64,000 bases of DNA from positions 1 to 64,000 of the forward strand of contig JAVJSW010000065.1 of assembly GCA_040219255.1 (NCBI GenBank). Direction: 5' to 3'. The stretch is from Sumerlaeia bacterium (GTDB lineage Bacteria; Sumerlaeota; Sumerlaeia; SLMS01; JAHLLQ01). Of the stretch, positions 44,948-64,000 are shown piece by piece. The notes under the pieces were generated by a model. It saw only the letters and a program-made list of their open reading frames with translations, ran no database searches and was not told the DNA's origin. Each line of letters starts with the position of its first letter. Within the stretch, counting starts at the first letter, position 1. A program made the position numbers and the translations under genes.

Positions 44948-45694
44948 ATGCAACGTCCAACTTTTCTGAAGCCCTCGCTGTCCATTTTCAAGTTCGCGCT
45001 GAAGGCGCTGTTCTCGCCGACTTACGCGGTGGCGAGGGTGCTGAAGCACCTGACGGCGCGGAGAATCCGCCGGACGCCTTCGGTGAAGAAGTTCTTGCGT
45101 TATCGTTCGGCGAAAGCGAATTTGATGGAGTGGATGGATACGGGCTATTTGATTCTGAGCCTGATATTGTGTATGAGTTTCTTGGTGGTGGACTTTTTCA
45201 TTGGAGAGTCGCCGATCCGCAATTGGAATCGAAGCCTTGGATATTGGCCGATGTTGATCGCGAGCTATCTGTATTTCCAATCGCGCAATAACGAGATCCT
45301 CTTGGCGTTTGTCTCGGACGCGGTGGACAAGGTGCGTATTCCGCACGGTTCCAGCGCGTTGAGACCGTCACAGCGAGTGGCGATGGCGCTGCGGAGTTAC
45401 GGAGAGGCCATCATCAATGCGGCGGCGGTGTTCTATTTTATGCCGCGCGATTGGTTTGGCTCGAACCCGGAGAATCAGATCAAGGATTTTGCCGAGGCCC
45501 TTTATTATAGTGCGGTCACGGTAACGGCGGTGGGCTATGGCAGTATTTCTCCGCAGCACTTTATCGCCCAATGGTTGTCGGTTCTGGAAGTTTTCACCGG
45601 GTTCGGTTTGTTGTTTGTGGCCTTTACGATTTATACGAGCCTGGAGGAAAATCCGATGAAGCCGTTCAATTCCGAGTCTCAGAAATCTTCTTGA
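44948..45694 (+). CDS. Potassium-channel-like membrane protein (Ion_trans_2)
   Basis: TM helices with a pore helix and filter ALYYSAVTVTAVGYGSISP. Confidence 0.75.
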   Translation: MQRPTFLKPSLSIFKFALKALFSPTYAVARVLKHLTARRIRRTPSVKKFLRYRSAKANLMEWMDTGYLILSLILCMSFLVVDFFIGESPIRNWNRSLGYWPMLIASYLYFQSRNNEILLAFVSDAVDKVRIPHGSSALRPSQRVAMALRSYGEAIINAAAVFYFMPRDWFGSNPENQIKDFAEALYYSAVTVTAVGYGSISPQHFIAQWLSVLEVFTGFGLLFVAFTIYTSLEENPMKPFNSESQKSS

Positions 45695-48383
45695 GTTCGG
45701 CGAGGACGGCGAGGGCTTCGAGGGGCGTGAGGCGGTTGGGATCGACGAGTTTGAGGCGCTCGACCGCCGGATTGGGCGGCGCGGTGTCGAACAGGGAGAG
45801 TTGGCGATCGGACCAGGGATCGGCTTTGGGCAGGATCGAGGCCTTCTTCTTGGCCGTCATGGCTTTCGCTTCGGATTCTTCGCCGACTTCGCCGACGCGT
45901 GGGGCGACGGCCTCGCCGGCTTCGAGGCGGCCCAGGATTTCCCAGGCGCGATGGACCACGGGCGCGGGAACCCCAGCGAATTCAGCGGCATGGATACCGT
46001 AGGACTCGTCCGCCGGGCCGGGGATGAGTTTGTAGAGGAAGACGATTCGTTGTTTCTCCTCGAGCACGGCGACGTGGAAGTTACGCAGGCGAGGCATGGC
46101 GGCTTCGAGGGCGGTGAGTTCGTGATAGTGGGTCGCGAAAAGCGTTTTGGCGCGCTGGCCGGGCGTGTTGTAGAGGTACTCGCAGACCGCCCAGGCGATG
46201 GAAAGGCCATCGTAGGTGGAGGTGCCGCGGCCGATTTCGTCGAGGATGACGAGGCTTCGGCTGGTGGCGTTGCGCAAAATATTGGCGGTTTCGGTCATCT
46301 CGACGAGGAAGGTGCTTTGGCCGCGGACGAGGGCATCGTGGGCGCCGACGCGCGTGAAGATGCGATCGACGAGCGCGATGTTGGCCGAGCGCGCGGGGAC
46401 GAAGCTGCCCATGTGGGCCATCAGGGTAAGGAGGGCTGCCTGCCTGATATAGGTGGACTTACCCGCCATGTTGGGGCCGGTAATGAGGGCAACTTGGCAA
46501 TCATCGGGGCTGAGCATTACATCGTTGGCGACAAACGGCGGGTCGGTCTGGATTGCCTCCAGGACGGGGTGGCGGCCGTCGAGAATCTCGATGAGTCCGT
46601 CGTCGTTGATCTGGGGACGGACATAGCGGCCGGAGATGGCAGTTTCAGCGAGGGAGCGGAGGCAATCGATCTGGGCGACGATTTCGGCGTCTCGGAGAAC
46701 ATCGACGGCGCGGTCGGCCACGCGGCGCCGCAGTTCATCGAAGAGCTGGGCCTCGAGGGCGGCGATGCGGTCCTCGGCGTGGAGGATGATGTCTTCCTTT
46801 TCTTTCAGTTCCTGGGTGATGAAGCGCTCGCCGTTGGCGATGGTTTGCTTGCGGATGTAGCCCTCGGGCGGTTCGCCGCCGATGGCGCGGAGCTGGGCTT
46901 TTGTGAGTTCGATGTAGTAGCCGAAGACTTTGTTGAAGCCGACCTTGAGCTTTTCGGCGCCGACGCGCTGGGCCTCGCGGGCGCGGAATTGGGCGATCCA
47001 GTCCTTGCTGTTGCGGGCGGTGAATTTAATTTCGTCGAGGTCGGGCGAGAAGCCTTCGCGGATGACTTGGCCGCCGGAGAGGGTGGTGGGCGGTTCCTCG
47101 ACGAGGGCCTCGGCCAGCGTATCCGCGAGGTCGTCGAGCGGATCGATGCGGCTGCTGAGGTCTTTGAGAAGGTTGGACTTGGAGGAAGCGAGGGCTTGCT
47201 TGAGGGCGGGCAGGCGGCGAAGGCCTTCGCGGAGGGTGCCGAGGTCGCGGGGGCCGGCGTTGCCGATGCTGGCTCGGCCGACGATGCGCTCAAGGTCGCG
47301 GACGCCACGCAGGGCTTCGCCGACGACGGTGCGCAGGTTGAGGTGATCGACAAAATCGCCGACGGCTTCCAGGCGGGACTCGATATCCGATTGATTACAC
47401 AGGGGTTGCAGCAACCAGGCGCGCATCATGCGGCCGCCCATGGGCGTCTGGGTGCGATCGATTACGGAGAGGAGGGTGCCCTCGCGGCTTTCGTGCTGGA
47501 GGCCGCGGACGAGTTCGAGGCTGCGCTGGGTGACGGCGTCGAGGACCATCGAGCCCTGAGCGAAATGCACCCGCAGGTCGGCGATGTGGGCGATGGCGGA
47601 GCGTTGGGTTTGCTTCAGATAGCGCAGCAGCGCGCCAGCCGCGGCGATCCCGGCGGTGAGGTCCTCGGCGCCGTAGCCTTCGAGGCTTTGCACGCGGAAG
47701 TGATCGAGGAGAAGCTGGCGGGCCGGCTCGGGCCGGAAGTCGTCGCGCGGACGATTGGAAACGGTGAGGTTGCGTTCGAGGAAAAGAGGTTCCAGGAAGG
47801 GAGCTTCGGCGTCGTCGGGCAGGAGGATTTCCTTCGCCTCGAGGCGCTCCAGTTCGTTGAGAAGGCGGCCCTGGGCATCGTCGGCCGACGTTTCCGAGAG
47901 GGCGAAAAAGCCGGTCGAAACATCGGCCACGGCGACGCCCCAAACGGGAGTGGATGACCCCTTGGCTTTGATGGGGCAGAGGGCGACGAGGTAGTTGTTG
48001 GCTTTGTCTTCGAGAAGGGCTTCGTCCGTTGCGGTGCCTGGAGTTACGACGCGCATGACCTCGCGCCGGACGAGGCCCTTGGCCTGCTTCGGGTCCTCGG
48101 TCTGCTCGGCGACGGCGACGCGTTTGCCGGCGCGGACGAGTTTGGCGATGTAGCCCTCGGCCGCGTGATACGGCACGCCGGCCATCGCCACATCGCCGTC
48201 CTTGCCCATGCCCTTGCGGGTGACGATAATGTTCAGCAGGCGCCCGGCTTCTTCGGCGTCTTCGGCGTAGGTTTCGTAAAAATCCCCGCAGCGAAAGAAC
48301 AGAATCGCATCCGGATACTCACGCTTCAACCCCGCGTACTGGCGCATCATGGGCGTGGAGAAAGCGTCGAGAGAGGCGGTCAT
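45666..48383 (-). CDS. mutS: DNA mismatch repair protein MutS
   Basis: TPMMRQY, GDFYE, TGPNMAGKST, STFLVEM, DEIGRGTST, FATHYHEL. Confidence 0.97.
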   Translation of the reverse strand: MTASLDAFSTPMMRQYAGLKREYPDAILFFRCGDFYETYAEDAEEAGRLLNIIVTRKGMGKDGDVAMAGVPYHAAEGYIAKLVRAGKRVAVAEQTEDPKQAKGLVRREVMRVVTPGTATDEALLEDKANNYLVALCPIKAKGSSTPVWGVAVADVSTGFFALSETSADDAQGRLLNELERLEAKEILLPDDAEAPFLEPLFLERNLTVSNRPRDDFRPEPARQLLLDHFRVQSLEGYGAEDLTAGIAAAGALLRYLKQTQRSAIAHIADLRVHFAQGSMVLDAVTQRSLELVRGLQHESREGTLLSVIDRTQTPMGGRMMRAWLLQPLCNQSDIESRLEAVGDFVDHLNLRTVVGEALRGVRDLERIVGRASIGNAGPRDLGTLREGLRRLPALKQALASSKSNLLKDLSSRIDPLDDLADTLAEALVEEPPTTLSGGQVIREGFSPDLDEIKFTARNSKDWIAQFRAREAQRVGAEKLKVGFNKVFGYYIELTKAQLRAIGGEPPEGYIRKQTIANGERFITQELKEKEDIILHAEDRIAALEAQLFDELRRRVADRAVDVLRDAEIVAQIDCLRSLAETAISGRYVRPQINDDGLIEILDGRHPVLEAIQTDPPFVANDVMLSPDDCQVALITGPNMAGKSTYIRQAALLTLMAHMGSFVPARSANIALVDRIFTRVGAHDALVRGQSTFLVEMTETANILRNATSRSLVILDEIGRGTSTYDGLSIAWAVCEYLYNTPGQRAKTLFATHYHELTALEAAMPRLRNFHVAVLEEKQRIVFLYKLIPGPADESYGIHAAEFAGVPAPVVHRAWEILGRLEAGEAVAPRVGEVGEESEAKAMTAKKKASILPKADPWSDRQLSLFDTAPPNPAVERLKLVDPNRLTPLEALAVLAELKKISETRN

Positions 48384-48497
48384 GGGAGAGGGAATGGGGT
48401 TGGGGGCGGGAGGTGGTCAAGGGGGGAGTTGAAGACGAGAGCAAGGGAACGTACCAATGCATCACGATAGAGGCATAATTCGAAACGTTGAACAACT

Positions 48498-49262
48498 TTA
48501 TATTACAGTATAATTTTCCGGTATATCCTCGCATTGTTCGCCGACCTTTCCTGGAAACAATGCTTCAATACTCGCCTTCGTCTTGTTGCTGGAATGGCGG
48601 ATTTCAAATTTCGTCAGGCTCTTGCTTTGGGAAAGCGTAGTGAAAGCGTTAAGGCTCAACCCCCTACACATAACACATAAGACTGTGTGGAGATTCGGGG
48701 CTTTGGCCAATCCCTCCAGCGAAGTCAAATCCTTCAACGACTCGAGGTCCACGCGGCGTAAACGAGTGAGGCCGGAGCAGTCAGGAAACGAGGAGACACC
48801 ACTTACGGAGGAAACTTCAAGATACTGCAATTGAGACAGCCCGCTTATAAATTCCAAATTTTGCAGTTTCTTCAGGTCAACAAGCAAGAGTGCCTTTAAC
48901 CTAGACAGTTTTCCGATACTTTGAACATTCTTCGGTACGGAGGAGAACAAGTACAGTATTTCTAGACAGGTGATATCCTTCAGAGGGTCCAGTGTCTCTA
49001 TCTTCGTAGAAGTTAGCGACAAGTCTTCGAGTTGACTAAGCCCTGATATTCCCTCGAAATTCTTCGGGGTACCGATCAGTTGTAAATTCTTGACAAATGC
49101 CATCGCTTCCCACGGCACGTGGGCAAATGCAACGTCGTCCATGTCAAGAGCAAGACTTGTTTCTCCTCGATCCCTAAGCTCTTCACAGAAGCTGACGAAG
49201 CCCTCATCCGATACCCCGGACGGGTGAGTTGGCATTTGCTTGTAATCGCCGTATTCAATCAT
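48498..49262 (-). CDS. Leucine-rich-repeat protein, putative immunity protein
   Basis: Repeated LxxLxxLxL units, low GC, starts 6 bp after the RHS stop with GGAGG overlapping that stop. Confidence 0.8.
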   Translation of the reverse strand: MIEYGDYKQMPTHPSGVSDEGFVSFCEELRDRGETSLALDMDDVAFAHVPWEAMAFVKNLQLIGTPKNFEGISGLSQLEDLSLTSTKIETLDPLKDITCLEILYLFSSVPKNVQSIGKLSRLKALLLVDLKKLQNLEFISGLSQLQYLEVSSVSGVSSFPDCSGLTRLRRVDLESLKDLTSLEGLAKAPNLHTVLCVMCRGLSLNAFTTLSQSKSLTKFEIRHSSNKTKASIEALFPGKVGEQCEDIPENYTVI

Positions 49263-49268
49263 ATGCAG

Positions 49269-52200
49269 CTACCTCCGCAGGGGATTTTTTCCACCACTTC
49301 GATTGATTCTGTCAAGGGCTTCTTTGAAGAGTTCTTCTGTCACGGCCTTGCGGTAATTTTTCGCATTTCCATTTCGATCAGTGAACGAGCGGATTTTATT
49401 CCACAATGGTGTTTTCTTGTTGACAGACTTTGGACCTCCGAATTCATCCATGAGCTTCTGCTCCAACCCGCGTGCTTCCGCTTTTGTGAGGCTGCCCGTC
49501 GTGAATAACGTCACGCCGATGTGCTTTGGCTTTGTCTTCTTATGTGATGCGAGCCGATCATTTACAACACCTATCCCTACATATTTGACATTCCTATTAC
49601 GACTGTCCAGGAGTACATATAGACCGTACTGTTGATTAGACTTCGCACCAAGCGGACGCGCAAGTACCTCGATAAGGCTCCTAGAGAGTGAAGAACTCGA
49701 CGATCTCGATGGCCCCGCTTCTTCCTCTTGCCCTGGCAGAGGTGGCGGTGGCGCACCAACAAAAACTTCATATGCCTCGACTACGGCTATGATAAAGTAA
49801 AAAATTGACTGTGCAAGTTCTATTAAATTCCCCAACGATCTACTTATAGCGAATTCGACTATAGATGTCAAAAGATCAACACCGGATATCGCTAGGACTA
49901 TCAATGATATAGCCTTGCTGATCTGCAGGATAATCTCGTTCGCCTGCTCTTCGCTAACGGACTCCCAATCCTCAACTCCCAATACCGCTTCCATGAAGCG
50001 ATCCATCAATATGTCAAAACCCATAACTTCCATCAGGAAGTCCAGAATTGGGATATATAATATGCTGGCGTCTATTCCTGAAGCGCTCACAATCGTTCTG
50101 AGCAGGAAAGAGGTGATTTCCGGAACTATTACATAGGCTAATAGAGCTTGTATTACGCCCGAAATGGAAATTTCCGCCAGCGAAAACCACCCAGAAGGAT
50201 CAAACATCCCGATAGGATTCGCCCCTACGTAGCCGTAGCTACTAATATGGTTATTGGGGAAATCGACGTAGGTATCGATGGATGCCCACTTCCCAATGTC
50301 AGCGGTCAACCACCTTGCCCGATGATGCTGCAGCTCCGTCGCCCCATCGAGCCGTTGCCCCGTAAACGCATAGGCCGTTTCCTGGGCGCCGGGCTTCATG
50401 TCGTCCGACAGCAGTTCGCCAAACGCGGCGTAGTCGCGTGTGTCCTGGACGTAGCCTTGGGCGTCGGTGGTGGCACGGAGGCTGCCGAGGGCGTCGGCGC
50501 TGACAAAGCGTTCTTCGGCGCCGGTGGGTTCGACTTTGGTGCGGGCCATGAGGGTGTCGGCCCAGGTGTTGAGGGCGCGGACGCGGCCGGTGGTGGCGTC
50601 GATTTCGGCGAGGGTCTGGCTGTAGCCTGTGGGGTTTTCGCGATCGACGACGTAGCGTTCGGAAGTAAGGCGCTGGCCGTTTTCGTCGAAGACGTGGCGG
50701 CCGATGAGGTCGTTGTTGGTGTCGTAGTCGTATTCGACACGGAGCGGATCGGTGCCGGGGATTTCGGCGGCGATCAGGGTTTCTCCGCGGCCCCAGAAAT
50801 AGCGGGTGGTGGCGCCGGTGCGGTCGTTGGTGCGGGTGAGCATCTGGCCGTTGGCGTTGTAGGTGAAGCTCTCGACGGCTGTGTTGGCGGTGGCGCGGGT
50901 GGCGCCTTCGCGGATGGCGGCGAGGCGTTGCGTGCCGGGTTCGTAGAAATAATGGCGGGCGGGCTTGTCGGCGGCGTCTTCGAGGATGCGGTTGCTGTCG
51001 GCGTCGTAGCCGTAGGCGACTTCGCGGACGATCTGGCCGCCCGCTTCGCGGCGTTCGAGGGTCAGCCGGCCGAGACGGTCGTAGTGGTAAGTCCAGACGG
51101 CGGAGTTTTCTCCGCGGCGCTCGACGATGCCGAGGCGGGTGCCATCGGCACCGAGAACGTAGTCGGCGGCGAAGACGACGGTGCCGTCGGCGGCGGTGTG
51201 GGTGATGAGTTCGAGGCGGCCGAGGGCGTCGTAGGCGCGTTCCTCGACAAGGCCGGTGGTCAGGTTTGTGACGCGCTTCTTCAGGCCGGCGCGGTTGTAT
51301 TCGATGCGCCAGGAGGCTTCGGGGGCGAGGACTTCGGAGAGACGGCCGGCGAAGTCGTACTTATAGGACACGGTATGACCGAGTGTCGAAATGGAGGCCA
51401 GCGATCCGAATTGATCGTAGTCGTAATCGATGGGCGCGGGGTCTTTTTCGACGTACTCGAGGCGCCCGGTTTCGCGGTCGAAGGTGCGCGTTTCGGTACG
51501 CACCACATCGCCGACGGTGTGGGTCAGCGAGTCGAGGCGGCCGCGGGCATCGTAGCCGTAGGCGATGGTTTCGGCGATGGCCCCAGCGACGGAGGGGGTG
51601 TAGGTTTCCGAGTCGAGGCGGAAGTCATCGTAGAAGTAGCGGGTCACATCGCCGTTGGCTTTGACGAGGCGATCGCGCTGGCCGTCGGCGTTGTAGTATG
51701 TCGTCTTCCAGGGCAGGCTGGAGAGCGTGGGTTCGCTGGGGGGCGTGGCGAGGGAGGCTTGCGTTTCGACGACGCGTTCGAGGTCGCCTTCGGCGTCGAG
51801 GAAATCGCGCCATTCCTTGACGATGCCGCTGGGATAGATGGCTTTGGTGCGGCTGCCGGATTCGTCGTATTCGAACTGGAACGTGACGTTTTGCGTGGGC
51901 GTCTGGTTGTAATCGCCGGGGACGAGGCCTTCGCAGCCGACGCAATTGAAGATGACCGCTTCGGCCTGACCGTCGTCGTTGTAGCGCGTGTAGGTCTTGA
52001 CCTGGGCGGTGATTTCGTTGGTCAGGGAGCCGTTGGCCGCGATGGTGGCGGAGAGACTGGCGGGTTTAACGACGGCGACCTGGCGGCCTTCGGCGTCGTG
52101 CTCATAGAGTTCCCAGGTGCCGGCGACCACCACGGAGCCATCGGCGGCGAGGTTGTTGGTCGCGACGAGGTCGGTGTCCTGGTGGAACAGACCGACGAGT

Positions 52201-55200
52201 TGGCCATAGGCCGGTTCGGCGACGCTGGCGATGTCGTCGGCAGCAAAGGGTGTCGAACCATCGGTGTCGGTGCGATAGAGATAGGTGCTGCGGACGCCGT
52301 CGCGGGCCTGGAGCGGGGTCTGGGCCCAGGCGAGGCGGCCGAAGCGGTCGTAGCCGCGGCGGGTGGTATTGGTCACGCCGTTGTAGGTTTCGTGGGTCGC
52401 GATTTCGCGACCGGCGGCATCGAACTCGGTTTCGGTGATCAGACCGCGAGGCGAGACGGTCTTGTAACGCCGCCCGAATTCATCGTAGAAATGGCGGGTT
52501 ACGCGGACCGAGCCTTCGGCGCCTTCGAAGCGTTCTTCGACAGTACGACCAGAACCATCGGTCACGGAGATCGTGCGGTTGTTGTCTTGATCGGTGACGA
52601 TTTTCGAGCGGGTGCCGTCGCTGTTGGTCTGATAGTCGGTCTGGGTGGCCGAGCCATCGTCGTAGATGACCTGGTACTGACGGCCGAGGTCGTCGTACTT
52701 GTATTCGGTGCGGCTGGCGCCGTTGGGGCCGGTGCTTTCGCTGACGAGGACGTTGCCGAGGCCATCGTAGGTCGTGCGGGTGGTCGAGAGCGCAGGGCCG
52801 CCATCACTGGTGGCGCTATAGACCGCGCGGCCTTCAGCATCGGCGATTGTGAAAGTCCAGCTTTCTTCCTGCGGATCGTAGCTGGCGAGGTTGTTGCCTT
52901 CGGCGTCGGAGTAGGTGACGGAGATGGTCTCGCCGCTGCTGGGGTTGCTCGTGCTAACGGTTTGCATTTCCAGCCAGACGCCGCTGGGCCAACTGGGCAG
53001 ATGGGCCGAGCGGACGGCGGCGGGGACGGCGGCTTCCAGGGCGGTGCGAAGCGTGGCGAAGGGGCCCTCGTTGGCGTAGCCGGTGGCGTAGGTGTAGGTG
53101 ACGGAGGAGAGAGTTTCCGTGCCGCGCTGGGAGACGGTCTGCTCGATACGGCCGATGAAATCGCCGGCGTTGTAGTAGGTGTTCCGGGTTTCGACTCCGG
53201 GGCCGGAAACGGCGCCGACTTCGTTGCGGGCGCTCTTCTGCACCGGGGTGTCGCCGCCTTCCTGACGGCCATAGTACAGGTTGATGTCGCGGCCTTCGGG
53301 GTCGGAGACGAAGTGGACCTTGCCGGTGCCGTCGGGCATGGTTCCATCGGGGGCCTGGCCGATGTTGAACTTGGATTCGTTGTAGCGAACCAGGACCGAG
53401 TTTTTCTCGCCGTTGTCGATGCCGTCGGGGCCGACGGCAGGGGTCTTGACGTTGGTCGGCTGAACCTGCTGGCTGGTCAGGTAACCGGGGCGCATTCTCC
53501 CGTTGTTATAATCGTCGTAGCCGGGGGCTCTGGCGGTGCGGCCTTGGAAGTGGGCGCTCCAGAAATCGAAGTAGTTTTGGGCCATGCCGTCGATGCCGTA
53601 GTACTGCTCCTGATAGGGTTGGAGGTCGTACTCGAAATCGGTCTTCACGCCGCCAACGGTCTGGGACCTGAGCACTCCGGGAGGGGCGGCGATGTAGTCG
53701 TCGCTGTCGTCGGGATAGTAGTCGTAGGTGGTGACCACGCCCGCGGCGTCGACTTGGCGGGTGACGCGTCCGGCGTCGTCGTATTCGACTTCGGTGCGGC
53801 CGCCAGTGGCTTCGTCGACGACGGTGTGGGTGCCGCCACCTGCTTCGTTGTCTTCGTATTCCATGGCGACATCGCCGGCGCCGGTTTCGATCGTGCTAAG
53901 GCGGGCGTCGTTGTCGTAGTCATAGGCAATTTCCGCGTCGCCCGAGTCCGGCGCGCCATGATTCGGATCGGCGGAGTCCTGGCGATCCACCACCATGCGG
54001 GTCAGGTAATGGGGAAAGTCCTCGTCCTCGTAATAGAGCCAGCGCTTGTTGCCGTTGCGGTCGGTGATTTCCGACAGCTCGCCCTTGTCGTTGTAGGTGT
54101 ACAGGAAGAAGAAGCCACGCGGGTCGGTGATCTTGGAGATGCGGCCCTCGCTGTCGCGCTCGACGGTGATGCGGCGGCCGAGGTTGTCCTCGATCAGGAC
54201 TTCCGTGCCGTTTTCTGTGTCGTTGTAGGAATAGTCCACGGCGACTGGAGCGGGTTGGCCGATTTCGCCGTGGCCGGCGTCCTGGCGCAGGAGCTGGCCC
54301 GACTCCCATTCGTAGATCAGGTAGGAACCGTCTTCCAACTTGAGGCAGGCCAGTGTTCCATCGGGGTTGGATGACCCATCGTGCCAATCGGGCAGAGCGA
54401 TGCCTTGGTTATCGCGGAGCGCGATCAGTTCCTGGCGATAGGCCTGAACGACCCGGTGGCCTTCGTTGTTGTAGTCGTACTGGCTGAAGGGATTGCCGCC
54501 GTCGCCGAAGAGTCCATCGTAGGGCGTCGTGTAACCGGGCAGCCAGAGCATCTGGCCGTAAGGGCGATTGATGAAGGCGCGTTCGACGCCCCAGCTATTG
54601 TCGCCCTCGTCGATGAGGTCGAACTGGACGGGGGCGTTGGCGTAGGTGAAGGTGCGGCCGTCGGGCAGGGTGATTTCCGCTTCGATGCGTTCATCGCCGA
54701 GGCCCGGTTCGACGATGGAGGTCTTCTGGAGAGTGAGGTCCAGGCCTTCGAGCTGCCAGCCCCAGCCGAAGTCGCCTTTGGTGGTGGAGCGGAAAGAGTT
54801 GTACTCGCGGGCGATCTCGATGGAGATCCCTTCGAAATCGGTGGAGAAATCGACCTGTCGCAGTTGCAGGGAACCGGGCGTGCGGTCGTCCGTGTCCTCG
54901 CCGGGCAAGGTCGCGCTGTGCATGACCTTGTAGCCGGGGATGAAGCCCGTGGCGTAGCGCAGACCGTCGGTAACCAGGAGGCGGATGTCGTAGGTACCGA
55001 CGGGGAGCTTTGAAATGTCCCAAGTGCCAAGCGTGGCGGTGGTGTTTTCGTCGCCGCGGTTTTCAAAGCCGTAGTCGATGGTCTTCCAACTGGACTCGAA
55101 ACCGCCGTATACCGACATCAGGTAAGGCGTTTCGGTGCTGTCGATGACCGGTTCGGCGCTGTGGGGTTTGTAGGACAGGAGCCAATAGGGGCGCTCGGCG

Positions 55201-58200
55201 GGGAAGATCTGACCGATTTCCCCGCCGTCGGGCGCACCGACAGCGTCGAAAACAGGATTGAACACGTAGCCGTTGATGGGAACCTGAGGCGTCTTGTCCT
55301 TGAGCAGCAGCGTATTCAAGGGTTCGGAGATATCGAGGGCCGGGTCGGCTCCGCTGAGGAACAGGACCGGGTAAATCTGCGATTGGCCATTGATCGAGAC
55401 GCGAAGCTGGTACTGACGGGCCGATTGGCCGGGAGGCAGCGAGGCGTGCTCGCCGCGCCAGATGTGTTTGGTCAGGAAGGTGTCGGCCTGAACCGGCGCG
55501 GGACCGAAGTCATAGGGCACGGCGCCTACGGGGGCGCCGTTCTGGTCGAGCAGTTCGACTGCCGGTGTGCCGCTGCCGTGAAGGATATCGACGATGATGC
55601 GGTGGGCGGCTGGGTTGCCGGTCCATCTAGCCGGATCGATGACGGAGGAACTGCTGAGTGCGACGCTGTAGAGAGAGCCGGCGAGATTGTATTCGCGCTC
55701 GTCCTTGGTCACGTTGCCAAAGGCGTCTTCCGCGGCGACGCGAATGGTCAGGGGCCGGCCGCTGAGGCCTTTCTTGCCGCGCAGGTCGAGGGCCTTGGCG
55801 AAGGTTTTCGTGAGCTGGGGATTGAATGGCGCGGAGAAATCGAGCAGGTTTTCCGTGCGGTCTTCGACGTCGAGTTGGCCGGAAATGTTGTTCCAGCGCG
55901 CCCACGTGTAGTCCAGGTCCACGCGGAGGGACTTGATGCCGGAGTCTTCGGGCAGTGTGTTATCGAGCGCGTTGACGAGGAGATCAGCCGTGTTGCCAGT
56001 AAGCAGATCACCGGCGGGGGCTGCGAATTCGACACGCGGGAAGAGGCCATCGTTGCGGACGGTCAGGGGGGTCTGGACCTCGGCGAGATTTCCGGCGGCG
56101 TCGGCGGCTTGAAGACGCAGGACATAGTCGCCGTTGGCGCGCATGGCTTCGGCGGCCCAGTTCGCAAGGTTGCCGGAGCCCACTTCGCGGGTGCCAGTGT
56201 TGAGCAGCACCCAATCCTGAGTTCCCGCTTCGGCGAGATGAACGGTATAGGTGGTCAGGTGAATGTCTTCAACCGTGCCCCAAACGGCCACATTGCCGCG
56301 CACTTCGCCCTCGAAGGGCTTGAGCGCGACGTTCGGCGGGGTGACGTCGATGGTGAAGGTCTGGCTGACGGTGCGCGAGCGGCGCTCGTACACTTCGCCG
56401 TCGAGGCGCAGGTCGAGGGGGCCGTTGTAGCCGTCGAGACCCGCGAAGGCGCCGGTGAAGCCGGGGGTGGACTTGAGCTGCCAGAGGGCTTCGCGGACTT
56501 CTCCCGGCGTGTCCGGGTCGGACTTGCTATCGAGGCGGGCCAATTCCCCTCCCCCGCCGTCATAGGCAAAGAAGCGGAAGTCGGTCATGATCTGGTTGAA
56601 AAGGCCCTTGGCCGTGACGCGATCCCAGTGAGCCGGGTTGAAGACCGAGCCCGGGGCGAGTGTTTCTTCGTCACCGCCGTCGCGGGCGAGGAGAAGCTCC
56701 ATGCCGAGGACTTCGGGGCGGGAGAACTCTTCCATCAGGGCGTGGAGGAACACCACGGCAGTGGCGCCATTGGCGGCGAATTCCGCCGGCGAGGCGGGGG
56801 CAGCCAAGGGCGCGCACAGGGCCGCCAGAGGATGGACGGCGGCCACGTAAGCTCGCGCCACGGCGACGGAGGCGCCTTCGTAGGTTTCCGCGCCGGTGAT
56901 GGCGAGTTGGGCCAGGCGCAAGGCCGGACCACCGCCATCGACTGGCCCGAGGCTGGGCGCGACCAAGTGACCCGGGCGCACGATCATGCCGGAGAGGGCT
57001 TCCGTTTGCTGGGCGCTGAAGGCCTGGTGCGGCAAAACCGCCAAGGCATCGGCGGCTAGCGTTTCGGTCTTCCAGGCGGGGCCATCGAGGGCCAACGCGC
57101 CCCAGCCCAGGCCGAGGGCTCCGGCGGGTTCGGCGGGGCTGGCGGCCGCGCGGCCATCGGCCAGCAGCAGGGACGCTCCGGCGTCGGCGCGGGCCTGGAG
57201 GTTCGCGGCGAGGTTGCCAGAATCCGCTGGGACACGGTCGCCCGCGGCGTCGAGGACTTCGGCGTTCTCCGGCGTCACGGCGTATGCGGCCGCGAGGCCG
57301 GCGGAATTCGCGTCGCGCATGAGACGGCCTGCAGTCACGGGCTCGACAGCCTGGCCAAGCACCGTGAAGGGGCCATTGGCGAGGACGGCGGAGCGGGTGA
57401 GTTGGAGGGCCGACTGGACGCTATCGGTCGGGGCGTAGCGCGCGTCGCTCTCGCCCACCACCGGACCGATGGGCAGGGCGCCTTCCGAGAGGGCGAAGCG
57501 CCACTGGGGGGCACCAAAGGTGCCATCGGCGGCGGGGACGGGTTCGAAGCCCGCCAGGGCCCACTGGCCTGCCAGGGCCACGCGATGCCCTGCGGCCAAC
57601 GCGCCCAGATCGATCAGTTGCTCGCTCTGGGACAGAAGGACCTGCGCCGTGAAATCCAGCGTCGGGGCCAGCGCGCGCGTCGGATCGCCGGCGGACGGGT
57701 CCTCCGAGAGACGCGAGAGGGTGGTGGTGAGGCTTTGCTGGCGCTCGCGGTAGTTGGGCAGCGTGCGCTCGTTGAGCGACGGAAGGGCCGCCACCGAGAA
57801 TAAAGCACCAGCGCGGGTGGCGAGGGATTCACGGCGGGCGGCGGGATCGGCGGTGGGCAGGGGCTGGCCTTCGCCGGGGCCCTGGAGCGCGATTTCCACG
57901 CGCACCGGATCGCCGTAGCCGACGGCTTGGGACGCGCGGGCGATTTCGGACTCGCCGAGCGTGACTCGGCCCAGCACCGGCAGGGCACCCTGGGCGAGCG
58001 ATGCCTGGTTGTAGGTCTCCGTCGTGGCGGCGGCGTCGGAGGACACAAAGCCCACAGAGAGCACGTTTTCGAAAAGCGCGGCGCTGGCGAAGTTGGCTTC
58101 GGCGAGGGTTTCGCCGGATTCGCTGATAATCCGCAGGCCGACCTCGTGGCGCATGGGCGCGAGGAAGTCTTCGATGTCGGCGACCTTCAAGACGGCCGGG

Positions 58201-59177
58201 CGACCCAGGATCGAGTAGGGCAGGGATTCGGGCAGCGTGTCGATTTTCTCGACCGTCGGGCGGCGGCGTGTCAGGGCTTCCTCGACCGTCAGGCCTTCCT
58301 CTTCGAGGAAATTGCGGAATACGGCGGCGGCGCTGTCGGCCTGGGTCAGCAGGTAGTCCTCAGGGACGGCGGAGGCGGAGGCTTCGGCTTCATCGACGGA
58401 GAGGAAGCTGAGGGCCTGCTGGACAAAGGCATCGGCGTCGAGGCCGGACAGTTCGAAAGGCGTGGGTACTTCGGCGACTTCTTCCTGGAGGACGAAGCTG
58501 GGGTCGAGGTCTGTTCGGATGCCATCGTTGCCGGCGACGAAGCGGGTGCCGCGCAAGGGGCCATATTCCAGATCGCCGCGGAGCCAGACGTGGTCTTCGA
58601 GCAAGAGGGTCCAGCGTTGGGTGGCGGTGTTGCCCTCGATGCGATGGGGAACGCCCGCCTGGGTCAGATAGGTCTGGATGGCCTGAGGTGTGTCGGCGCC
58701 GATGAAGTCACGGGCCTGACGCGATGTCAGACGCACGTGCCCTCGCACAACCCAAAGGTCCGGTTCGCCCCGGTCCAGGTTTCGCCACGCCGCGCGCAGC
58801 AGGGCCGCGAGAAGCAGAGCCTGATCGGTGTCGTTGCCCTTGCGGCGCTGGAGCGTGCCCAGCGCGCCGAAGCGGGCGCCGCGATAGGGTTCGTAGGCGA
58901 TTTCGTTGCGGACGAATTCGTAGATCAGAACGGGATGGTTCGACAGCCGGCCCGCTTGGGCGACCAGGGGCGGGGTGACGCGCTGGCCGCTGGGAAGCTC
59001 TTCCACGCGGCCCCAATTGATTTCGAGGGGCGCGCTGTCCACCATCTGCAAGCCGTTCTGCGCATAGATGTGGGCGAGCTTGTCGAAGTGCGGAAAATAG
59101 ACCATCATGAAGGCGGTCAAAAACGCCACCGGCCAAGAGAAGTAACGAAGGGTGCGGGGATTTCGGAAGAGCTTCAT
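49269..59177 (-). CDS. 3302-aa RHS/YD-repeat polymorphic toxin: signal-like N-terminus, transglutaminase-like head, Ig-like repeats, RHS core, C-terminal GIY-YIG nuclease
   Basis: Many YD repeats, FTGQRLD...HHRARW...YGYVGANPIGMFDPSG, and tip YGLYVL...KYVGIG...R...E...N. Confidence 0.92.
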   Translation of the reverse strand: MKLFRNPRTLRYFSWPVAFLTAFMMVYFPHFDKLAHIYAQNGLQMVDSAPLEINWGRVEELPSGQRVTPPLVAQAGRLSNHPVLIYEFVRNEIAYEPYRGARFGALGTLQRRKGNDTDQALLLAALLRAAWRNLDRGEPDLWVVRGHVRLTSRQARDFIGADTPQAIQTYLTQAGVPHRIEGNTATQRWTLLLEDHVWLRGDLEYGPLRGTRFVAGNDGIRTDLDPSFVLQEEVAEVPTPFELSGLDADAFVQQALSFLSVDEAEASASAVPEDYLLTQADSAAAVFRNFLEEEGLTVEEALTRRRPTVEKIDTLPESLPYSILGRPAVLKVADIEDFLAPMRHEVGLRIISESGETLAEANFASAALFENVLSVGFVSSDAAATTETYNQASLAQGALPVLGRVTLGESEIARASQAVGYGDPVRVEIALQGPGEGQPLPTADPAARRESLATRAGALFSVAALPSLNERTLPNYRERQQSLTTTLSRLSEDPSAGDPTRALAPTLDFTAQVLLSQSEQLIDLGALAAGHRVALAGQWALAGFEPVPAADGTFGAPQWRFALSEGALPIGPVVGESDARYAPTDSVQSALQLTRSAVLANGPFTVLGQAVEPVTAGRLMRDANSAGLAAAYAVTPENAEVLDAAGDRVPADSGNLAANLQARADAGASLLLADGRAAASPAEPAGALGLGWGALALDGPAWKTETLAADALAVLPHQAFSAQQTEALSGMIVRPGHLVAPSLGPVDGGGPALRLAQLAITGAETYEGASVAVARAYVAAVHPLAALCAPLAAPASPAEFAANGATAVVFLHALMEEFSRPEVLGMELLLARDGGDEETLAPGSVFNPAHWDRVTAKGLFNQIMTDFRFFAYDGGGGELARLDSKSDPDTPGEVREALWQLKSTPGFTGAFAGLDGYNGPLDLRLDGEVYERRSRTVSQTFTIDVTPPNVALKPFEGEVRGNVAVWGTVEDIHLTTYTVHLAEAGTQDWVLLNTGTREVGSGNLANWAAEAMRANGDYVLRLQAADAAGNLAEVQTPLTVRNDGLFPRVEFAAPAGDLLTGNTADLLVNALDNTLPEDSGIKSLRVDLDYTWARWNNISGQLDVEDRTENLLDFSAPFNPQLTKTFAKALDLRGKKGLSGRPLTIRVAAEDAFGNVTKDEREYNLAGSLYSVALSSSSVIDPARWTGNPAAHRIIVDILHGSGTPAVELLDQNGAPVGAVPYDFGPAPVQADTFLTKHIWRGEHASLPPGQSARQYQLRVSINGQSQIYPVLFLSGADPALDISEPLNTLLLKDKTPQVPINGYVFNPVFDAVGAPDGGEIGQIFPAERPYWLLSYKPHSAEPVIDSTETPYLMSVYGGFESSWKTIDYGFENRGDENTTATLGTWDISKLPVGTYDIRLLVTDGLRYATGFIPGYKVMHSATLPGEDTDDRTPGSLQLRQVDFSTDFEGISIEIAREYNSFRSTTKGDFGWGWQLEGLDLTLQKTSIVEPGLGDERIEAEITLPDGRTFTYANAPVQFDLIDEGDNSWGVERAFINRPYGQMLWLPGYTTPYDGLFGDGGNPFSQYDYNNEGHRVVQAYRQELIALRDNQGIALPDWHDGSSNPDGTLACLKLEDGSYLIYEWESGQLLRQDAGHGEIGQPAPVAVDYSYNDTENGTEVLIEDNLGRRITVERDSEGRISKITDPRGFFFLYTYNDKGELSEITDRNGNKRWLYYEDEDFPHYLTRMVVDRQDSADPNHGAPDSGDAEIAYDYDNDARLSTIETGAGDVAMEYEDNEAGGGTHTVVDEATGGRTEVEYDDAGRVTRQVDAAGVVTTYDYYPDDSDDYIAAPPGVLRSQTVGGVKTDFEYDLQPYQEQYYGIDGMAQNYFDFWSAHFQGRTARAPGYDDYNNGRMRPGYLTSQQVQPTNVKTPAVGPDGIDNGEKNSVLVRYNESKFNIGQAPDGTMPDGTGKVHFVSDPEGRDINLYYGRQEGGDTPVQKSARNEVGAVSGPGVETRNTYYNAGDFIGRIEQTVSQRGTETLSSVTYTYATGYANEGPFATLRTALEAAVPAAVRSAHLPSWPSGVWLEMQTVSTSNPSSGETISVTYSDAEGNNLASYDPQEESWTFTIADAEGRAVYSATSDGGPALSTTRTTYDGLGNVLVSESTGPNGASRTEYKYDDLGRQYQVIYDDGSATQTDYQTNSDGTRSKIVTDQDNNRTISVTDGSGRTVEERFEGAEGSVRVTRHFYDEFGRRYKTVSPRGLITETEFDAAGREIATHETYNGVTNTTRRGYDRFGRLAWAQTPLQARDGVRSTYLYRTDTDGSTPFAADDIASVAEPAYGQLVGLFHQDTDLVATNNLAADGSVVVAGTWELYEHDAEGRQVAVVKPASLSATIAANGSLTNEITAQVKTYTRYNDDGQAEAVIFNCVGCEGLVPGDYNQTPTQNVTFQFEYDESGSRTKAIYPSGIVKEWRDFLDAEGDLERVVETQASLATPPSEPTLSSLPWKTTYYNADGQRDRLVKANGDVTRYFYDDFRLDSETYTPSVAGAIAETIAYGYDARGRLDSLTHTVGDVVRTETRTFDRETGRLEYVEKDPAPIDYDYDQFGSLASISTLGHTVSYKYDFAGRLSEVLAPEASWRIEYNRAGLKKRVTNLTTGLVEERAYDALGRLELITHTAADGTVVFAADYVLGADGTRLGIVERRGENSAVWTYHYDRLGRLTLERREAGGQIVREVAYGYDADSNRILEDAADKPARHYFYEPGTQRLAAIREGATRATANTAVESFTYNANGQMLTRTNDRTGATTRYFWGRGETLIAAEIPGTDPLRVEYDYDTNNDLIGRHVFDENGQRLTSERYVVDRENPTGYSQTLAEIDATTGRVRALNTWADTLMARTKVEPTGAEERFVSADALGSLRATTDAQGYVQDTRDYAAFGELLSDDMKPGAQETAYAFTGQRLDGATELQHHRARWLTADIGKWASIDTYVDFPNNHISSYGYVGANPIGMFDPSGWFSLAEISISGVIQALLAYVIVPEITSFLLRTIVSASGIDASILYIPILDFLMEVMGFDILMDRFMEAVLGVEDWESVSEEQANEIILQISKAISLIVLAISGVDLLTSIVEFAISRSLGNLIELAQSIFYFIIAVVEAYEVFVGAPPPPLPGQEEEAGPSRSSSSSLSRSLIEVLARPLGAKSNQQYGLYVLLDSRNRNVKYVGIGVVNDRLASHKKTKPKHIGVTLFTTGSLTKAEARGLEQKLMDEFGGPKSVNKKTPLWNKIRSFTDRNGNAKNYRKAVTEELFKEALDRINRSGGKNPLRR

Positions 59178-59256: not shown

Positions 59257-62200
59257 TCAGGGAGTCCGGCCAAAAAGGAGCAGGTCGTCCTGATAGAGCG
59301 GTATGTCCGGCGTATCGACCCATTGGCTGGAGATGCCCTCGCGGCTGGGATCGTTGGCACCGTCCCAGTTCGCTTTCCAGTCGGCCAATCGAAGCCGCAT
59401 CTTCAGGTCGCAGACTTCGCCGGCGGGGATTGGCGTCTCCCATCGCAGGTCGACAAAGGCCAGCGACCCACCGCCATAGCGCTGGAGAGTGGCGGGCAAG
59501 ACGGTTCCGCACTTGCTCCAGAAAATGTCGACGGTGACCTGAGACGTATCGATACCGGAAGCGGTCACTTCGCTGGTGTCGATGAAGAAGCGGGCGGTGA
59601 TGTTCTCCGCCGCCATCGCGCTCTCGTTGTGGACGCGCAGGTGATAGCTGGTTTGCTGCGCGTTCTCGCCGGTCACTTTCGCGGTCACGCGCAGGGCGTC
59701 CTCCGGCAGTTCCGGGGTGGGTGGCGGAGGGACCTGGTGCGGCGTGTTCGACGAAGTTGTGCCCGGTTGGGTGCCAAAAACCAATTGGCCCTCCACATAC
59801 ACCGGAATGTTCGGGGCTGGCGCGAACGAAGTCGTCAGGTCCTGGAATGCCGGGTCGTTGGCGCCGTTCCAGGACTGCTGCCAGCCGGACAGACGGGGGC
59901 GGAGCTGCAGTTCACACGTCTGGCCCGCGCCGATGTCTTGGTTCCAGTCCACCTGCACGTAATAGATGTCGCCGCTCCAGGGCTGCGGCGGGGAGAGGCT
60001 GACGCTGCCACATTGGCTCCAGAACACGTCGGTGACGACGTGGCTGGCGGAGAGTCCGGCGGCGATGACTTCGCTGAGGTCGAAGTAGAGCCGCGCAGAG
60101 ACGTTCGCATAAGGCGAAGCGCCGGTGTTGCGCAGACGCAGCTTGTACTGCGTTTCCTGCTTGCTGCCAGTCCAACCCTGAAGTGCCGCCTGCATTTCGA
60201 GGGACGCGGAAATCGGCGTCGGCGATGGTGAAGGCGTGGGCGTGTCCGTCGGCGTCGGGCTTGGAGTCACGGTCGCCGATGGTGTTGGGGTCGGCGTCGG
60301 AGTCGCGGTTGGGGTCGGCGTTCCGCCGCCGGGCAGCGGATTGCAGAGGCTGCTGGGGTGGTGGTTCGACTGACCGTAGCCGGTCAGCGAGGCGCCGACC
60401 AGTGTGCCGTAGATCACGCCGTTATCGAAGGCCATGTCGGCGTGAGGAGCGAGGAGGGCTCCCTGGATGCCGACCCCGTCGAGCGAAACGTGTGTCGCGT
60501 CGGGGAAGTTATAGACGATGCGTTCACGGGTGGCCCCGTTGCGGAGGTCGAAACCGAATTGGCGCATGCGGGCGTTGGCCGCTCCGCGCACGTTCAGAAT
60601 CGCCGAGGCCCCGGCGGGGACGTCGATGGCGAGCGTGTTGGCGCTCCACAGATCGTTGCTCGGCACGTCGAATACGTTGGTGTTCGGGTCCGTACCGGTC
60701 AGGACGATCTGGGCCGTGGAACCGCCCCAGTAGTTGATCTCGACCTGGCCGTTGGCGGGCAGGGCCGCCCAGGCGTCGGAAAGGGCGAGCATTTGGGCCT
60801 CGGCGGCGGCGAAATCGAAGGGCGTGGCCTGGCGGACGTCGCCGCCGAAGCTGGTGTTGCCGGCGATCTGGGCGCTGAGGCCATAGGCCAAGGCGCCGTT
60901 GGGCACGGCTCCGTTCGAGAAGGTCAGATGGCCGCCCACGATCAGGTCGTCTCGGGCATTGCCTGCGAAGGGCAATCGGTCGCCGACGGAGTAGCTCGAC
61001 AGCGTGGCATTGCCGCCGATGGCGAAGCGGCCTTCGACGTCGGTGCCGTTCTGCACGACATCACCGAAGATCAGCACGTTGAAATCCGTGGCGATGTCGA
61101 GCGGGTTCGCTGAGCAGGGGCTGGGCGTCCCCGTGGGTGTAGGTGTGGGTGTCGCCGTCGGCGTCGGGGTCGAAGTCGCTGTGGGAGTCGGCGTTTCCGT
61201 GGGCGTTGGGGTCGGCGTGGGTGTCGGCTCGGTACAGCCTTCGAACTCGTTGGGGCCGTTGGCTCCGACCCAGAAGGCGTTCTTTGCCTCGATGTTGCGG
61301 ACGACGAGGGCCCCGCCGTCGAAGCGGCCGGAGCCGTCGAAGTCGAGGTCCGCGCCGGGGGCGTAGAGCACCATGCTGGCAGTCACCGCGCCCTTGAAGT
61401 GGATCAGGGCGCCGTCGCCGACGTAGATCGAGAGGCGGTCGCTGTCGTCCCAAATGCCGGTGGCATTGAAGGACGAGGCGCCCTTTGTGCTGAGGCCGTC
61501 GCGGGCGAAGAGGTGAGCGGTACCTGTGGCTCCGGCGATGTGCACCGAGGCGCTGCTCTCAAAGGCGAGTTTGCGGAAGGCATAGATGCCGGGTTCGAGC
61601 GTCAGGCGGCCGTTCTTCTTCACCGTGACGTCGCGATAGACGCCTGGGGCCAGGGTTGAGGTGCCCTGGAGCGTGCGATCCGCCGCCGAATCGACCGCGA
61701 AGGCTGAGAAGTCGGCGGAGGGCAGATCGAGGGCGGCGATGGCCGGATCGTAGGCGACATTGGTCGCGGTGGTCGAGCCGCGCTGGTCGATCTCGCCGCC
61801 AGCGCGAACCAACCCGGCCTGCATCGTGCCGCGAATCAAGGCGTCGCCACGGACCAGAAGGGTGCCTTCGTACCAGCCATCGAAGCCGTCGTTCAGCACC
61901 GTGGACCCGCGCAGATCCACATCGCCGAGAGCGACCACGGCGGCGTCACCGATGAGGCCGGTGGGCCATTCGCATGGAGCGGGTGTCGGCGTCGGAGTGG
62001 GCGTCTCCGTCGGAGTTGGGGTCGGCGTATCAGTCGGGGTTGGCGTAGGAGTGGGTGTCTCCGTCGGAGTCGGAGTCGGGGTAGGCGTATCCGTCGGCGT
62101 AGGCGTCGGGGTTGGCGTGGGAGTAGGCGTCTCCGTCGGGGTTGGCGTCGGGGTCGGAGTCGGCGTGTCCGTGGGTGTAGGCGTCGAGGTTGGCGTAGGC

Positions 62201-64000
62201 GTCTCCGTCGGCGTGGGCGTGGGTGTCTCCGTCGAAGTTGGGGTCGGGGTCGGAGTCGGAGTCGGTGTGTCCGTCGGCGTAGGCGTCGGGGTAGGCGTTG
62301 GCGTATCCGTCGGCGTGGGCGTGGGAGTCGGCGTCTCCGTTGCCGTCGGCGTAGGCGTCGGAGTAGGAGTCGGCGTAGGCGTCGGAGTAGGGGTCGGCGT
62401 GGGAGTCGGCGTGGGGGTCACTTCGAGTACCGTGATCGTCTCCGAGGCGAGCGCCGACGGGTTGCCGGCGATGTCGAAGGCCTGGATTTCGATGGTGTGG
62501 ACGCCGATTTGCAGATCGAGCGGCAGCGTCCAGTCGGCATGGTCGGCTCCGTCGGCGGTGAGGAGCCATTGCCAGGCGCCGCCGTCGATGCGGGCGAAGA
62601 CTTCCATCAGGCCTGAGCCCGGCGTGACCTCGTCGGCCGTGCCGGACAGCGTGACCGCGCCATCGTAGGCCGATGGCTGATCGACAGCTGTGATCGCCAC
62701 CACAGGTGCCACGGTATCGATAGCGAAGAGGGTCGAGGTGGTCGGGGCGACGTTGCCGGCGAAATCGCGCCCGTTGACTTCGAGGAAATAAACACCGTCT
62801 TCTATAGCATAATCGCCGGAGGAAACCGTGCGTAGCGGGTCGTCGCCGCCCTCGAATTCTGTGCGGGCGAGGAGGCCTTCGCTCGTGGCGACGTCGTCGT
62901 CGGCCGATGTCCAGGTCAGCGCCACCGGTGCCGTGGCGGCATTGAACCAATAGTCGACGGCGGCCGGGTGTGTGATGGAAATCAAAGGCGGCGTGCGATC
63001 GATAGCAAAGGTGATGGTGCGCGGCCCAGCGGTGTTCTGGGCGTGGTCGGTGGACTGGACCTCGAGGGAGTAAATGCCCTCGGGATAGAAGCCCACGGGC
63101 ACGGCGAAGGGTCCGTCGGCGGTGGCGACTTCGGTCCAGGTGGGGCCGTCTTCGAGGACGCGGCGCTCGACCGAGGCCACGCCGGAGAGCGAATCGCTGG
63201 TGAAGCCGGTGAAGCCCAGGTCGGTGCTGTTCGTGAGGATATACTCCGGTTTATCGAGGGTCAGGAACGGAGGTGTGCGGTCGACGAGCACAAACGCCGT
63301 GGCGGAGTTCGTGTTTCCGGCCGCATCGGTGGCGGAGAAGATCAGGGATTGGTCGCCCTCGGGCAGCGGCAGCGAGAGGTCCAGGCTGGCCGGATCGGGA
63401 CCGTATGGCGTGATGCCCAGCAGCGATTGGAGGCTGCGGCTTTCGACGCCCGAGAGGTTGTCCGAAGTGGTGGCACGGAAGGCGACTTCGCCCGCGTTGG
63501 TGGGGCTGGGGGTCAGGCGCTGGAGCGCCACCGCGGGCGGCGTGCGATCCACGATAACGGTGTCGGCGTTCGGGCGGGCGAGGCCGCGGAAGCTGAGTTC
63601 CGTGGCGGCGCCATCATAGCCCAGCGCTTCGACGCGCCAGAAACGCCACGTGCCCGAAGCGTCGAAGGTCCAGGAGCCAATGCCCGGCGCATCGTCAGCG
63701 AAGTAGTAGGACACGGGGAAGTAAATGCGGCCATCGAGGGAGCCCTCGACGCGGACTTCATAGATCAGCGACTGGGCGGTGCTCCAGAGGGCGAGGCTGT
63801 CCGCCGTGACAACGTCCGGGAATTCGAGATCGAGGACGAAATCGCGATGCGCCAGGGGCGTCGTCATATTGCCATCGAAAAGTACAGCGGGATCGGCCAG
63901 CTGGCCATTGACCGCCAGCGTGACGGTGGCGGGGCTGTCGCCCGCGAGGAGGTCGATGACGGGTTCGGGCGAGACCACCTCGAACCGCGTCCGGGTGCGG
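59257..64000 (-). CDS. Giant modular surface/adhesin protein (5' end beyond the window): discoidin-like, Ig-like, PT linkers, choice-of-anchor A-like, two CBM3-like modules
   Basis: Frame stays open to the edge. DRTPP repeats; [10 protein letters not shown]; [13 protein letters not shown]...YYVQVDW...WNGANDP present twice. Confidence 0.85.
60213..60325 (-). repeat. Pro-Thr linker repeat 3
   Basis: Encodes [10 protein letters not shown]...SPTP. Confidence 0.8.
61125..61230 (-). repeat. Pro-Thr linker repeat 2
   Basis: Encodes EPTPTPTP...GTPSP. Confidence 0.8.
61978..62420 (-). repeat. Long Pro-Thr linker repeat (about 145 codons)
   Basis: Hexamer-periodic ACN-CCN array with varied synonymous codons. 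Confidence 0.9.

Follow-up and report, generated by a model that had tools for sequence, protein, structure and literature searches.

A hydrophobic module with a pilin-like N-terminus lies between the RHS core and the GIY-YIG nuclease of a Sumerlaeia toxin

We analysed the first 64,000 nucleotides of contig JAVJSW010000065.1 (the window, below) from the assembly of a Sumerlaeia bacterium (GCA_040219255.1, here genome G000), which carry on the reverse strand a gene for an RHS polymorphic toxin of 3302 amino acids. The C-terminal tip of this protein, which autoproteolysis at the end of the RHS core would release, consists of a hydrophobic, all-helical module of ~145 amino acids, a Pro/Ser linker and a GIY-YIG (URI-type) nuclease, and the module begins with a segment that resembles, in register, the N-terminus of a mature type IV pilin. 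We give a probability of roughly one half to the reading that this is a Sec-type RHS toxin whose freed tip is a nuclease behind a membrane-entry module with a pilin-like N-terminus, the neighbouring leucine-rich-repeat (LRR) protein providing immunity. An earlier note on the window had described an RHS core followed by a pilin-like start, further hydrophobic helices, a linker and a GIY-YIG-type domain, and all of these were confirmed in the sequence. The features concerned are listed here with the evidence on which each was placed.

49269..59177, reverse strand: RHS polymorphic toxin gene, 3302 amino acids (list of open reading frames (ORFs), translation, Pfam, NCBIfam)
50187..50432, reverse strand: RHS repeat-associated core (aspartyl autoprotease plug), ending ...FDPSGW (TIGR03696)
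49755..50186, reverse strand: hydrophobic all-helical pre-toxin module, tip residues 1-144 (phmmer, alignment A1, grand average of hydropathy (GRAVY), AlphaFold2 (AF2) model)
50070..50186, reverse strand: pilin alpha1N-like start of the tip, tip residues 1-39 (conservation, genome-wide hidden Markov model (HMM) search, hhalign with controls)
49677..49754, reverse strand: Pro/Ser/Glu-rich linker APPPPLPGQEEEAGPSRSSSSSLSRS, tip residues 145-170 (sequence; model confidence (pLDDT) <50 in both models)
49296..49637, reverse strand: GIY-YIG (URI-type) nuclease toxin domain, tip residues ~184-297 (homologues, motifs, AF2 model)

The released tip and its front module

The RHS character of the protein is clear from matches to RHS_repeat (PF05593, E 1e-26, in 6 stretches), to YD_repeat (TIGR01643) and to Rhs_assc_core (TIGR03696, E 6.8e-12, residues 2916-2996; found in the genome search at G000:C65:50190-50432). 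This last match stops at position 75 of the 76 in the NCBIfam profile, and so W2997 is taken as the last position of the core, which ends ...PIGMFDPSGW; the next residue is F2998 (50186-50184) and the 22 residues right after W2997 are FSLAEISISGVIQALLAYVIVP (50186-50121). N-terminal sequencing of the RHS toxin Tse5 placed its C-terminal cut at Leu1168/Ile1169, four residues past the catalytic Asp1164, Asp1141 being the other residue of the catalytic pair (PMC10684867). Two core residues, D2968 (50274-50276) and D2993 (50199-50201), match the positions of this pair and probably form the catalytic pair here. As the Tse5 cut lies four residues after the second Asp, the corresponding cut would fall at W2997/F2998 and would free a tip of 305 amino acids, from F2998 to residue 3302. 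Homology of the tip to other proteins also begins exactly at F2998, and thus the placement given in the earlier note, after the residue that follows the DPxG motif, was right. A requirement of the RHS protease for Phe after its cut was considered and ruled out, since Phe stands there in only 1 of the 19 RHS cores of G000 (that of the window) and in 2 of the 26 tips of the database set that lack the module, some of the cut positions in these counts being extrapolated from partial HMM matches.

A phmmer search of the 305-residue tip against 1.84 billion representative sequences (E<=0.001) returned 85 proteins, of which 1 was the query itself, 79 matched the rear part only (~tip residues 152-301) and 5 matched the front only (residue 1 to ~140). 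The five front-only proteins (P0027, P0053, P0064, P0065 and P0074) all begin to match at query residue 1, directly behind a core ending in G-L, and a sixth relative, P0086, came from a profile search, giving 7 copies of the module including that of the window, in every one of which the start of the module coincides with the RHS cleavage point. The relatives are 22-32% identical to the window copy (alignment A1). Behind the module lies the GIY-YIG domain in the window and an AHH nuclease in P0053, P0065 and P0074 (the last with an Imm11 gene downstream of the toxin, locus L021), while the C-terminus of P0027 could be assigned to no toxin family and P0064 and P0086 are truncated copies. A further toxin domain thus trails the module in 5/5 complete copies, and all of the partners that could be identified are nucleases, which need access to the cytoplasm. 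We conclude that the module is a rare, portable unit which recombines with different toxins.

Conservation within the module is concentrated at its N-terminal end, with 10 invariant columns among columns 1-46 against 3 among columns 47-150. F1, S2, E5, I12, Q13, P22, R30, A35, D39 and P46 are identical in 7/7 copies; the earlier note had tied its idea to F1, E5 and P22 being kept across homologues, and these three are indeed kept in front of differing toxins. The module is strongly hydrophobic (GRAVY 0.58-1.06) and its AF2 model is all-helical (helices at 3-35, 41-54, 57-69, 79-115 and 118-143), with a hydrophobic hairpin at ~residues 79-143 which is more hydrophobic than the start.

Profile searches for further copies of the module, in which ~8000 candidates were scored per size class, recovered only four known members among proteins of 320-2000 amino acids and one new fragment among those of 39-319, and a phylum-wide profile search placed the module in 2 of 75 genomes (G000 and G012). 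A weak match to the module profile (E 0.0014, model positions 14-79) was seen at L023 (G045:C2:265137-268343) in a frame with two stop codons, and a search of genome contigs with the module pattern of P0053 gave 314 pattern matches, none of which was confirmed. There is no family for the inserted module in the libraries searched: neither Pfam nor NCBIfam contained an informative one, an ESM Atlas search reached a best score of 0.78 against unnamed clusters and gave no lead, and the module profile found nothing related beyond noise among PDB sequences.

In a 40-sequence alignment of the rear domain (A2), Y40, G42, R49, H53 and N101 are nearly invariant and E80 is invariant, so that the nuclease motifs Y, YxG, R, H, E and N are conserved in a pattern equal to that of Tox-URI1 (Y / YxG / R / [RK]xxE / N, PMC3482391). 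The GIY-YIG family PF01541 matches 4/40 members of A2 (best E 6.1e-5) and leaves the window's own domain unmatched, and the best match of the A2 profile among PDB sequences is the GIY-YIG domain of UvrC (1yd6, E 0.041). The AF2 model of the nuclease (pLDDT 84.3) resembles I-TevI (VIA-align Z 7.1, root-mean-square deviation 2.5, 76 residues aligned) and UvrC (Z 5.0-5.5), with T4 EndoII and Slx1 lower in the list and a weak Foldseek E of 0.18. The identification of this domain as GIY-YIG in the earlier note is thus borne out by motifs and by predicted fold.

A recognisable end of the RHS core was present in 31 of the 85 tip matches and 26 of these 31 were without the front module, their nuclease usually lying ~20-30 residues past the cut or other inserts being present. 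In P0081 and P0002, which share the GIY-YIG domain, the cleavage point is directly followed by other hydrophobic segments, which are not pilin-like, and so hydrophobic inserts before this nuclease arose more than once.

Likeness of the tip start to type IV pilins

Comparisons with pilins were made using those of G000 itself, which yielded 60 matches to the pilin family N_methyl at E<=0.01 and 51 ORFs with a nearly uniform mature start. This repertoire of pilins and pseudopilins is unusually large and is spread over many contigs (e.g. L001-L008).

A profile of module columns 1-45, searched with filters off against the 54,783 six-frame ORFs (>=50 amino acids) of the genome, placed the RHS tip at rank 1 and pilin-like ORFs at ranks 2-33 (best E 0.0058); 31 of these were flagged by motif and the one at rank 26 was confirmed by the pilin HMM (60.2 bits). 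The alignments were ungapped, set F1 of the module on F1 of the mature pilin and reached position 33-38. Comparison by hhalign of the module with the 51 pilins gave a probability of 85-95% (P 5e-6 to 5e-8), columns 1-39 aligning on 1-39 at 36% identity, and the observed score of 34.6 was reached by 0/200 shuffles of the pilin columns (mean 9.5, maximum 15.8) and by 0/200 shuffles of the module columns (mean 10.1, maximum 24.0). Each of the 7 module copies taken alone scored 19.2-27.9 against the pilin profile and always aligned 1 to 1, compared to 9.5-12.5 for the remainder of the module and 9.6 and 11.1 for the hydrophobic RHS tips of P0081 and P0002.

Outside G000, the full module profile also reached true pilins, over model positions 1-45, in two further genomes from the phylum (E 0.0065 and 0.0080 per genome), and a Geobacter pilin (2m7g) was matched among PDB sequences with 1-41 on 1-41, at an E of 0.62. 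Pilin-like genes whose N-termini are nearly identical stand in tandem arrays at L025 (G002:C100:1-2837) and L024 (G013:C158:1-1906), where they give weak matches to the module profile.

At 13/40 positions the tip has the residue of the genome's pilin consensus, including F1, L3, E5, I12, L16, P22 and R30. On a helix F1, E5, V8, I12, L16, V19, N23 and R30 would share one face, with N7, S10, Q13, T17 and Q18 on the opposite one. Beyond column 39 no pilin likeness was detected by hhalign, and the low-confidence model of residues 1-143, being all helix, predicts no globular alpha-beta head. The leader of a pilin and the Gly or Ala at position -1 are also absent, residue -1 being Trp (Leu in the homologues) and the segment starting at residue 2998 of 3302. 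The pilin resemblance claimed in the earlier note stands, beyond chance and composition, for the first ~37 residues, but the helix has a far lower hydrophobicity than in a pilin and there is no pilin character after residue ~40. On our reading the match to the pilin pattern is real and selected, and the segment is pilin-like but is not a pilin.

A second, purely hydrophobic RHS tip occurs in G000 behind a degenerate core end (P0088, 187 amino acids, L026:2769-3329, forward strand, equal to G000:C3:13768-14328). It begins F-S-L one residue past the inferred cut, with Pro at the position of pilin residue 22 and Gly in place of Glu5, and scores 19.5 against pilins in hhalign (probability 22.8%, columns 2-23 on 1-22); no relatives of it were found among proteins of 329-2000 amino acids or in the 75 genomes.

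A proposed route of entry and its alternatives

Because the module is portable, stands only before nucleases which require the cytoplasm, is hydrophobic and is most conserved at its new N-terminus, we favour the reading that it serves membrane entry. Under this proposal the aspartyl protease of the core would cut after W2997 and free the 305-residue tip inside the RHS shell, so that RHS autoproteolysis would stand in for prepilin peptidase in exposing Phe1. In a pilin the free amine of Phe1 is neutralised by Glu5, and the helix re-enters the membrane when the pilus retracts. The first ~37 residues of the tip reproduce this mature pilin helix pattern, having Glu5, Pro22, Arg30, a stripe of hydrophobic residues and a Phe1 that the cut would set free; Glu5 would pair with the new N-terminal amine one helical turn away, Pro22 would kink the helix and, since Glu5 would neutralise the Phe1 amine, the end of the helix could enter the bilayer uncharged. 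The most likely use of the pattern would be a physical one, the helix dipping N-terminus-first into the target cytoplasmic membrane much as the pilin of a retracting pilus does. The more hydrophobic hairpin at ~79-143 would follow it into the membrane, the GIY-YIG DNase would have to reach the cytoplasm of the rival, and the LRR protein would guard the producer.

The gene for this LRR protein has its start codon 6 nucleotides past the stop of the RHS gene:

48498..49262, reverse strand: leucine-rich-repeat protein, 254 amino acids, no signal peptide; immunity candidate (Pfam LRR_4, E 4.4e-7)

It is the single immunity candidate at the locus and is cytoplasmic, no membrane protein being encoded next to it, and PMC3482391 counts LRR proteins among those that serve immunity. 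Prediction of a complex between the nuclease and the LRR protein gave a median of 0.45 (runs of 0.45, 0.65 and 0.02), the best of 3 controls reaching 0.01, with a partner pLDDT of at least 81 and at least 0% of contacts shared between runs. The pass mark of this prediction was reached by 58/80 solved complexes and by 2/110 mismatched pairs, and scores of 0.60 or lower belonged to only 7 of the 80 solved complexes and to both of the passing mismatches. The cytoplasmic LRR protein probably neutralises the nuclease in the producer.

Several results weigh against the membrane-entry proposal. Insertion in the N-in manner of a pilin would by itself leave the nuclease outside the cytoplasm. The scoring with N_methyl (PF07963) called for in the earlier note went against the likeness, as neither the 36-residue nor the 305-residue piece gave a match even at E<=10, and the tip is absent from the 60 N_methyl matches of the genome. 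The reverse search was likewise insignificant, the pilin HMM scoring 2.1-10.7 bits on the module tips (E 1.1-550 for a genome-sized database). Helix 1 has a Kyte-Doolittle mean over residues 1-19 of 0.66-0.96 in 5 homologues and of 1.60 in the window copy, compared to 2.97 for a genome pilin; it is below the transmembrane threshold in 5/6 copies, and its hydrophobic run is interrupted, with polar residues at N7, S/T9, Q13 and T17/Q18. The AF2 model of the module is of low confidence (mean pLDDT 59.9, helix 1 <50) and a fold search with it led only to helical hairpins of a generic kind, RF2 and designed bundles among them. Another part of the module is matched at E 0.0033 by a helical protein designed de novo, and so the HMMER E-values for the module profile are optimistic. 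Being near-copies, the 51 pilins amount to a single family, and the conservation in the 7 copies represents one evolutionary event because they share one origin. Finally, the nuclease-LRR prediction was only a weak pass, with one of three runs at 0.02.

It is possible, if unlikely, that the module acts as a second toxin in its own right, depolarising membranes by pore formation as the tip of Tse5 does, and that the pilin-like start is incidental to its first helix. Its length of ~145 amino acids, strong hydrophobicity and hairpin at ~79-143 would suit this, Tse5-CT is a membrane-inserting RHS tip of 16 kDa (PMC10684867), and the tip of P0088 on contig C3 is purely hydrophobic with a similar start. 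However, the further toxin domain behind the module in all of the complete copies argues against such a role, as do the lone cytoplasmic immunity candidate, with no adjoining membrane protein, and the lack of PDB relatives of the module profile beyond noise.

Slightly less probable, in our view, is that the module works within the producer, keeping the tip unfolded or anchored in the shell or shielding the nuclease, and that the pilin pattern is the convergence of a generic amphipathic helix. RHS shells are described as holding unfolded tips (PMC11461821), the module begins exactly at the autoprotease site, and helix 1 is amphipathic rather than transmembrane, but 26 RHS proteins with the same nuclease dispense with the module, the protease does not demand Phe (1/19 genome cores, 2/26 non-module tips), and the shuffle and real-sequence controls speak against a generic helix.

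True pilin mimicry, in which the tip would be a counterfeit mature pilin entering through a putative receptor or translocon in the rival's inner-membrane machinery for type IV pili or for the type II secretion system (T2SS), which is in heavy use in this pilin-rich lineage, is the least probable of these alternatives and we regard it as doubtful: the in-register likeness, which includes the invariant F1, E5, P22 and R30, would fit a doorway for the nuclease at the platform protein, the alignment complex or the retraction pathway by which pilins re-enter, and CdiA toxin tips do use specific inner-membrane proteins for entry, but the tip fails every pilin family test, its hydrophobic run is broken and it lacks the globular domain of a pilin. 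Both module-bearing genomes are rich in pilins (60 N_methyl matches in G000 and 31 in G012), and in G000 there are also a prepilin peptidase, 16 matches to the T2SSF domain and 8 secretins, but this richness proves nothing, as the two genomes are related and the whole lineage shares it. The route through pilus machinery is also topologically awkward, because of the N-in insertion noted above.

The carrier locus, significance and known systems

The RHS protein starts with a basic and then a hydrophobic segment, which on reading of the sequence is signal-like (Sec), and has a weak match to Transglut_core (E 0.0034, under the family cut-off). Sec-type RHS toxins with inactive transglutaminase domains have been described (PMC3482391), and these features fit that architecture, that is, a Sec-type polymorphic toxin rather than one belonging to a type VI secretion system (T6SS). 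Delivery by a T6SS was considered and is unlikely: the sheath family VipB had no match in the genome, which at 92% completeness does not prove its absence.

GC content falls to 0.40-0.55 across ~48400-50250, compared to 0.65-0.67 in the body of the RHS gene, and so a swapped toxin/immunity cassette appears to reach from the final codons of the core through the tip to the LRR gene:

48400..50250, no strand assigned: low-GC cassette of last core codons, tip and LRR gene (composition profiles)

Beyond the LRR gene lies a MutS gene (45666-48383, Pfam). Directly upstream of the RHS gene there is a very large ORF (59257-63999, reverse strand) which runs past the end of the window and has pAdhesive_15 (E 3.7e-55), Big_13 and DUF7305 domains; it is like a surface adhesin and may cooperate with the RHS protein. 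G000 contains 19 RHS core domains in all (L009-L020 and others), many of them in short frames or at contig ends, which gives them the look of toxin cassettes that were orphaned or displaced.

RHS toxins that carry a URI/GIY-YIG tip and have an immunity gene next to them are already known. In the open-access literature searched we found no paper linking the tip of an RHS or polymorphic toxin to a pilin-like N-terminus, and the first 300,000 characters of PMC3482391 do not contain the word 'pilin'; the subject of PMC8460266 is a Tad-like apparatus for killing whose toxin is unknown. How the nuclease tips of RHS proteins outwith the T6SS pass through the membranes of rivals is poorly understood, and this locus offers a discrete, portable module, defined in sequence, which rides before nucleases and whose most conserved part resembles the business end of a pilin. 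Two testable ideas follow: that an N-terminus of the pilin type can also be made by another protease than prepilin peptidase, and that toxin entry may have reused the Phe1/Glu5 charge pairing or captured a pilin helix. Pilus machinery, if it does take part, would add a new class to the receptors of toxins.

The module is comparable to the cytoplasm-entry domains of CdiA-CT toxins in being a modular N-terminal sub-domain of a released tip which is paired with different nucleases. Those domains are carried on a two-partner secretion filament, whereas the module has an RHS carrier, is far more hydrophobic and has no known receptor.

With a type IV pilin or pseudopilin the tip shares a Phe1 exposed proteolytically (here, as proposed), Ser/Thr2, Leu3, Glu5, a hydrophobic stripe, Pro22 and Arg30, over ~37 residues in register. 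A pilin has a leader and Gly at -1 and is processed by prepilin peptidase, whereas the tip has neither, has Trp or Leu at -1 and would be cut by the RHS aspartyl protease; a pilin has an unbroken hydrophobic run and a head domain, whereas the tip has polar breaks, is headless and lies within a protein of 3302 amino acids.

Tse5 of Pseudomonas aeruginosa (PMC10684867) likewise has a hydrophobic helical tip of ~16 kDa which is freed by the core protease and held in the shell until a membrane is met. The Tse5 tip is itself the toxin and is delivered by a T6SS, whereas in the window the hydrophobic part stands before a nuclease, and a search of the genome for a T6SS sheath gene gave no match.

In overall build the protein is like the Tox-URI1 RHS toxins (Zhang et al. 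2012, PMC3482391), which have the same RHS repeats, core autoprotease and C-terminal GIY-YIG-type nuclease, an adjacent immunity gene (here the LRR candidate) and the same Sec-type N-terminus with a transglutaminase-like domain. In 26 relatives the nuclease lies a short linker past the cut, whereas in the window, where PF01541 misses the nuclease, a hydrophobic module of 145 amino acids is inserted in front of it.

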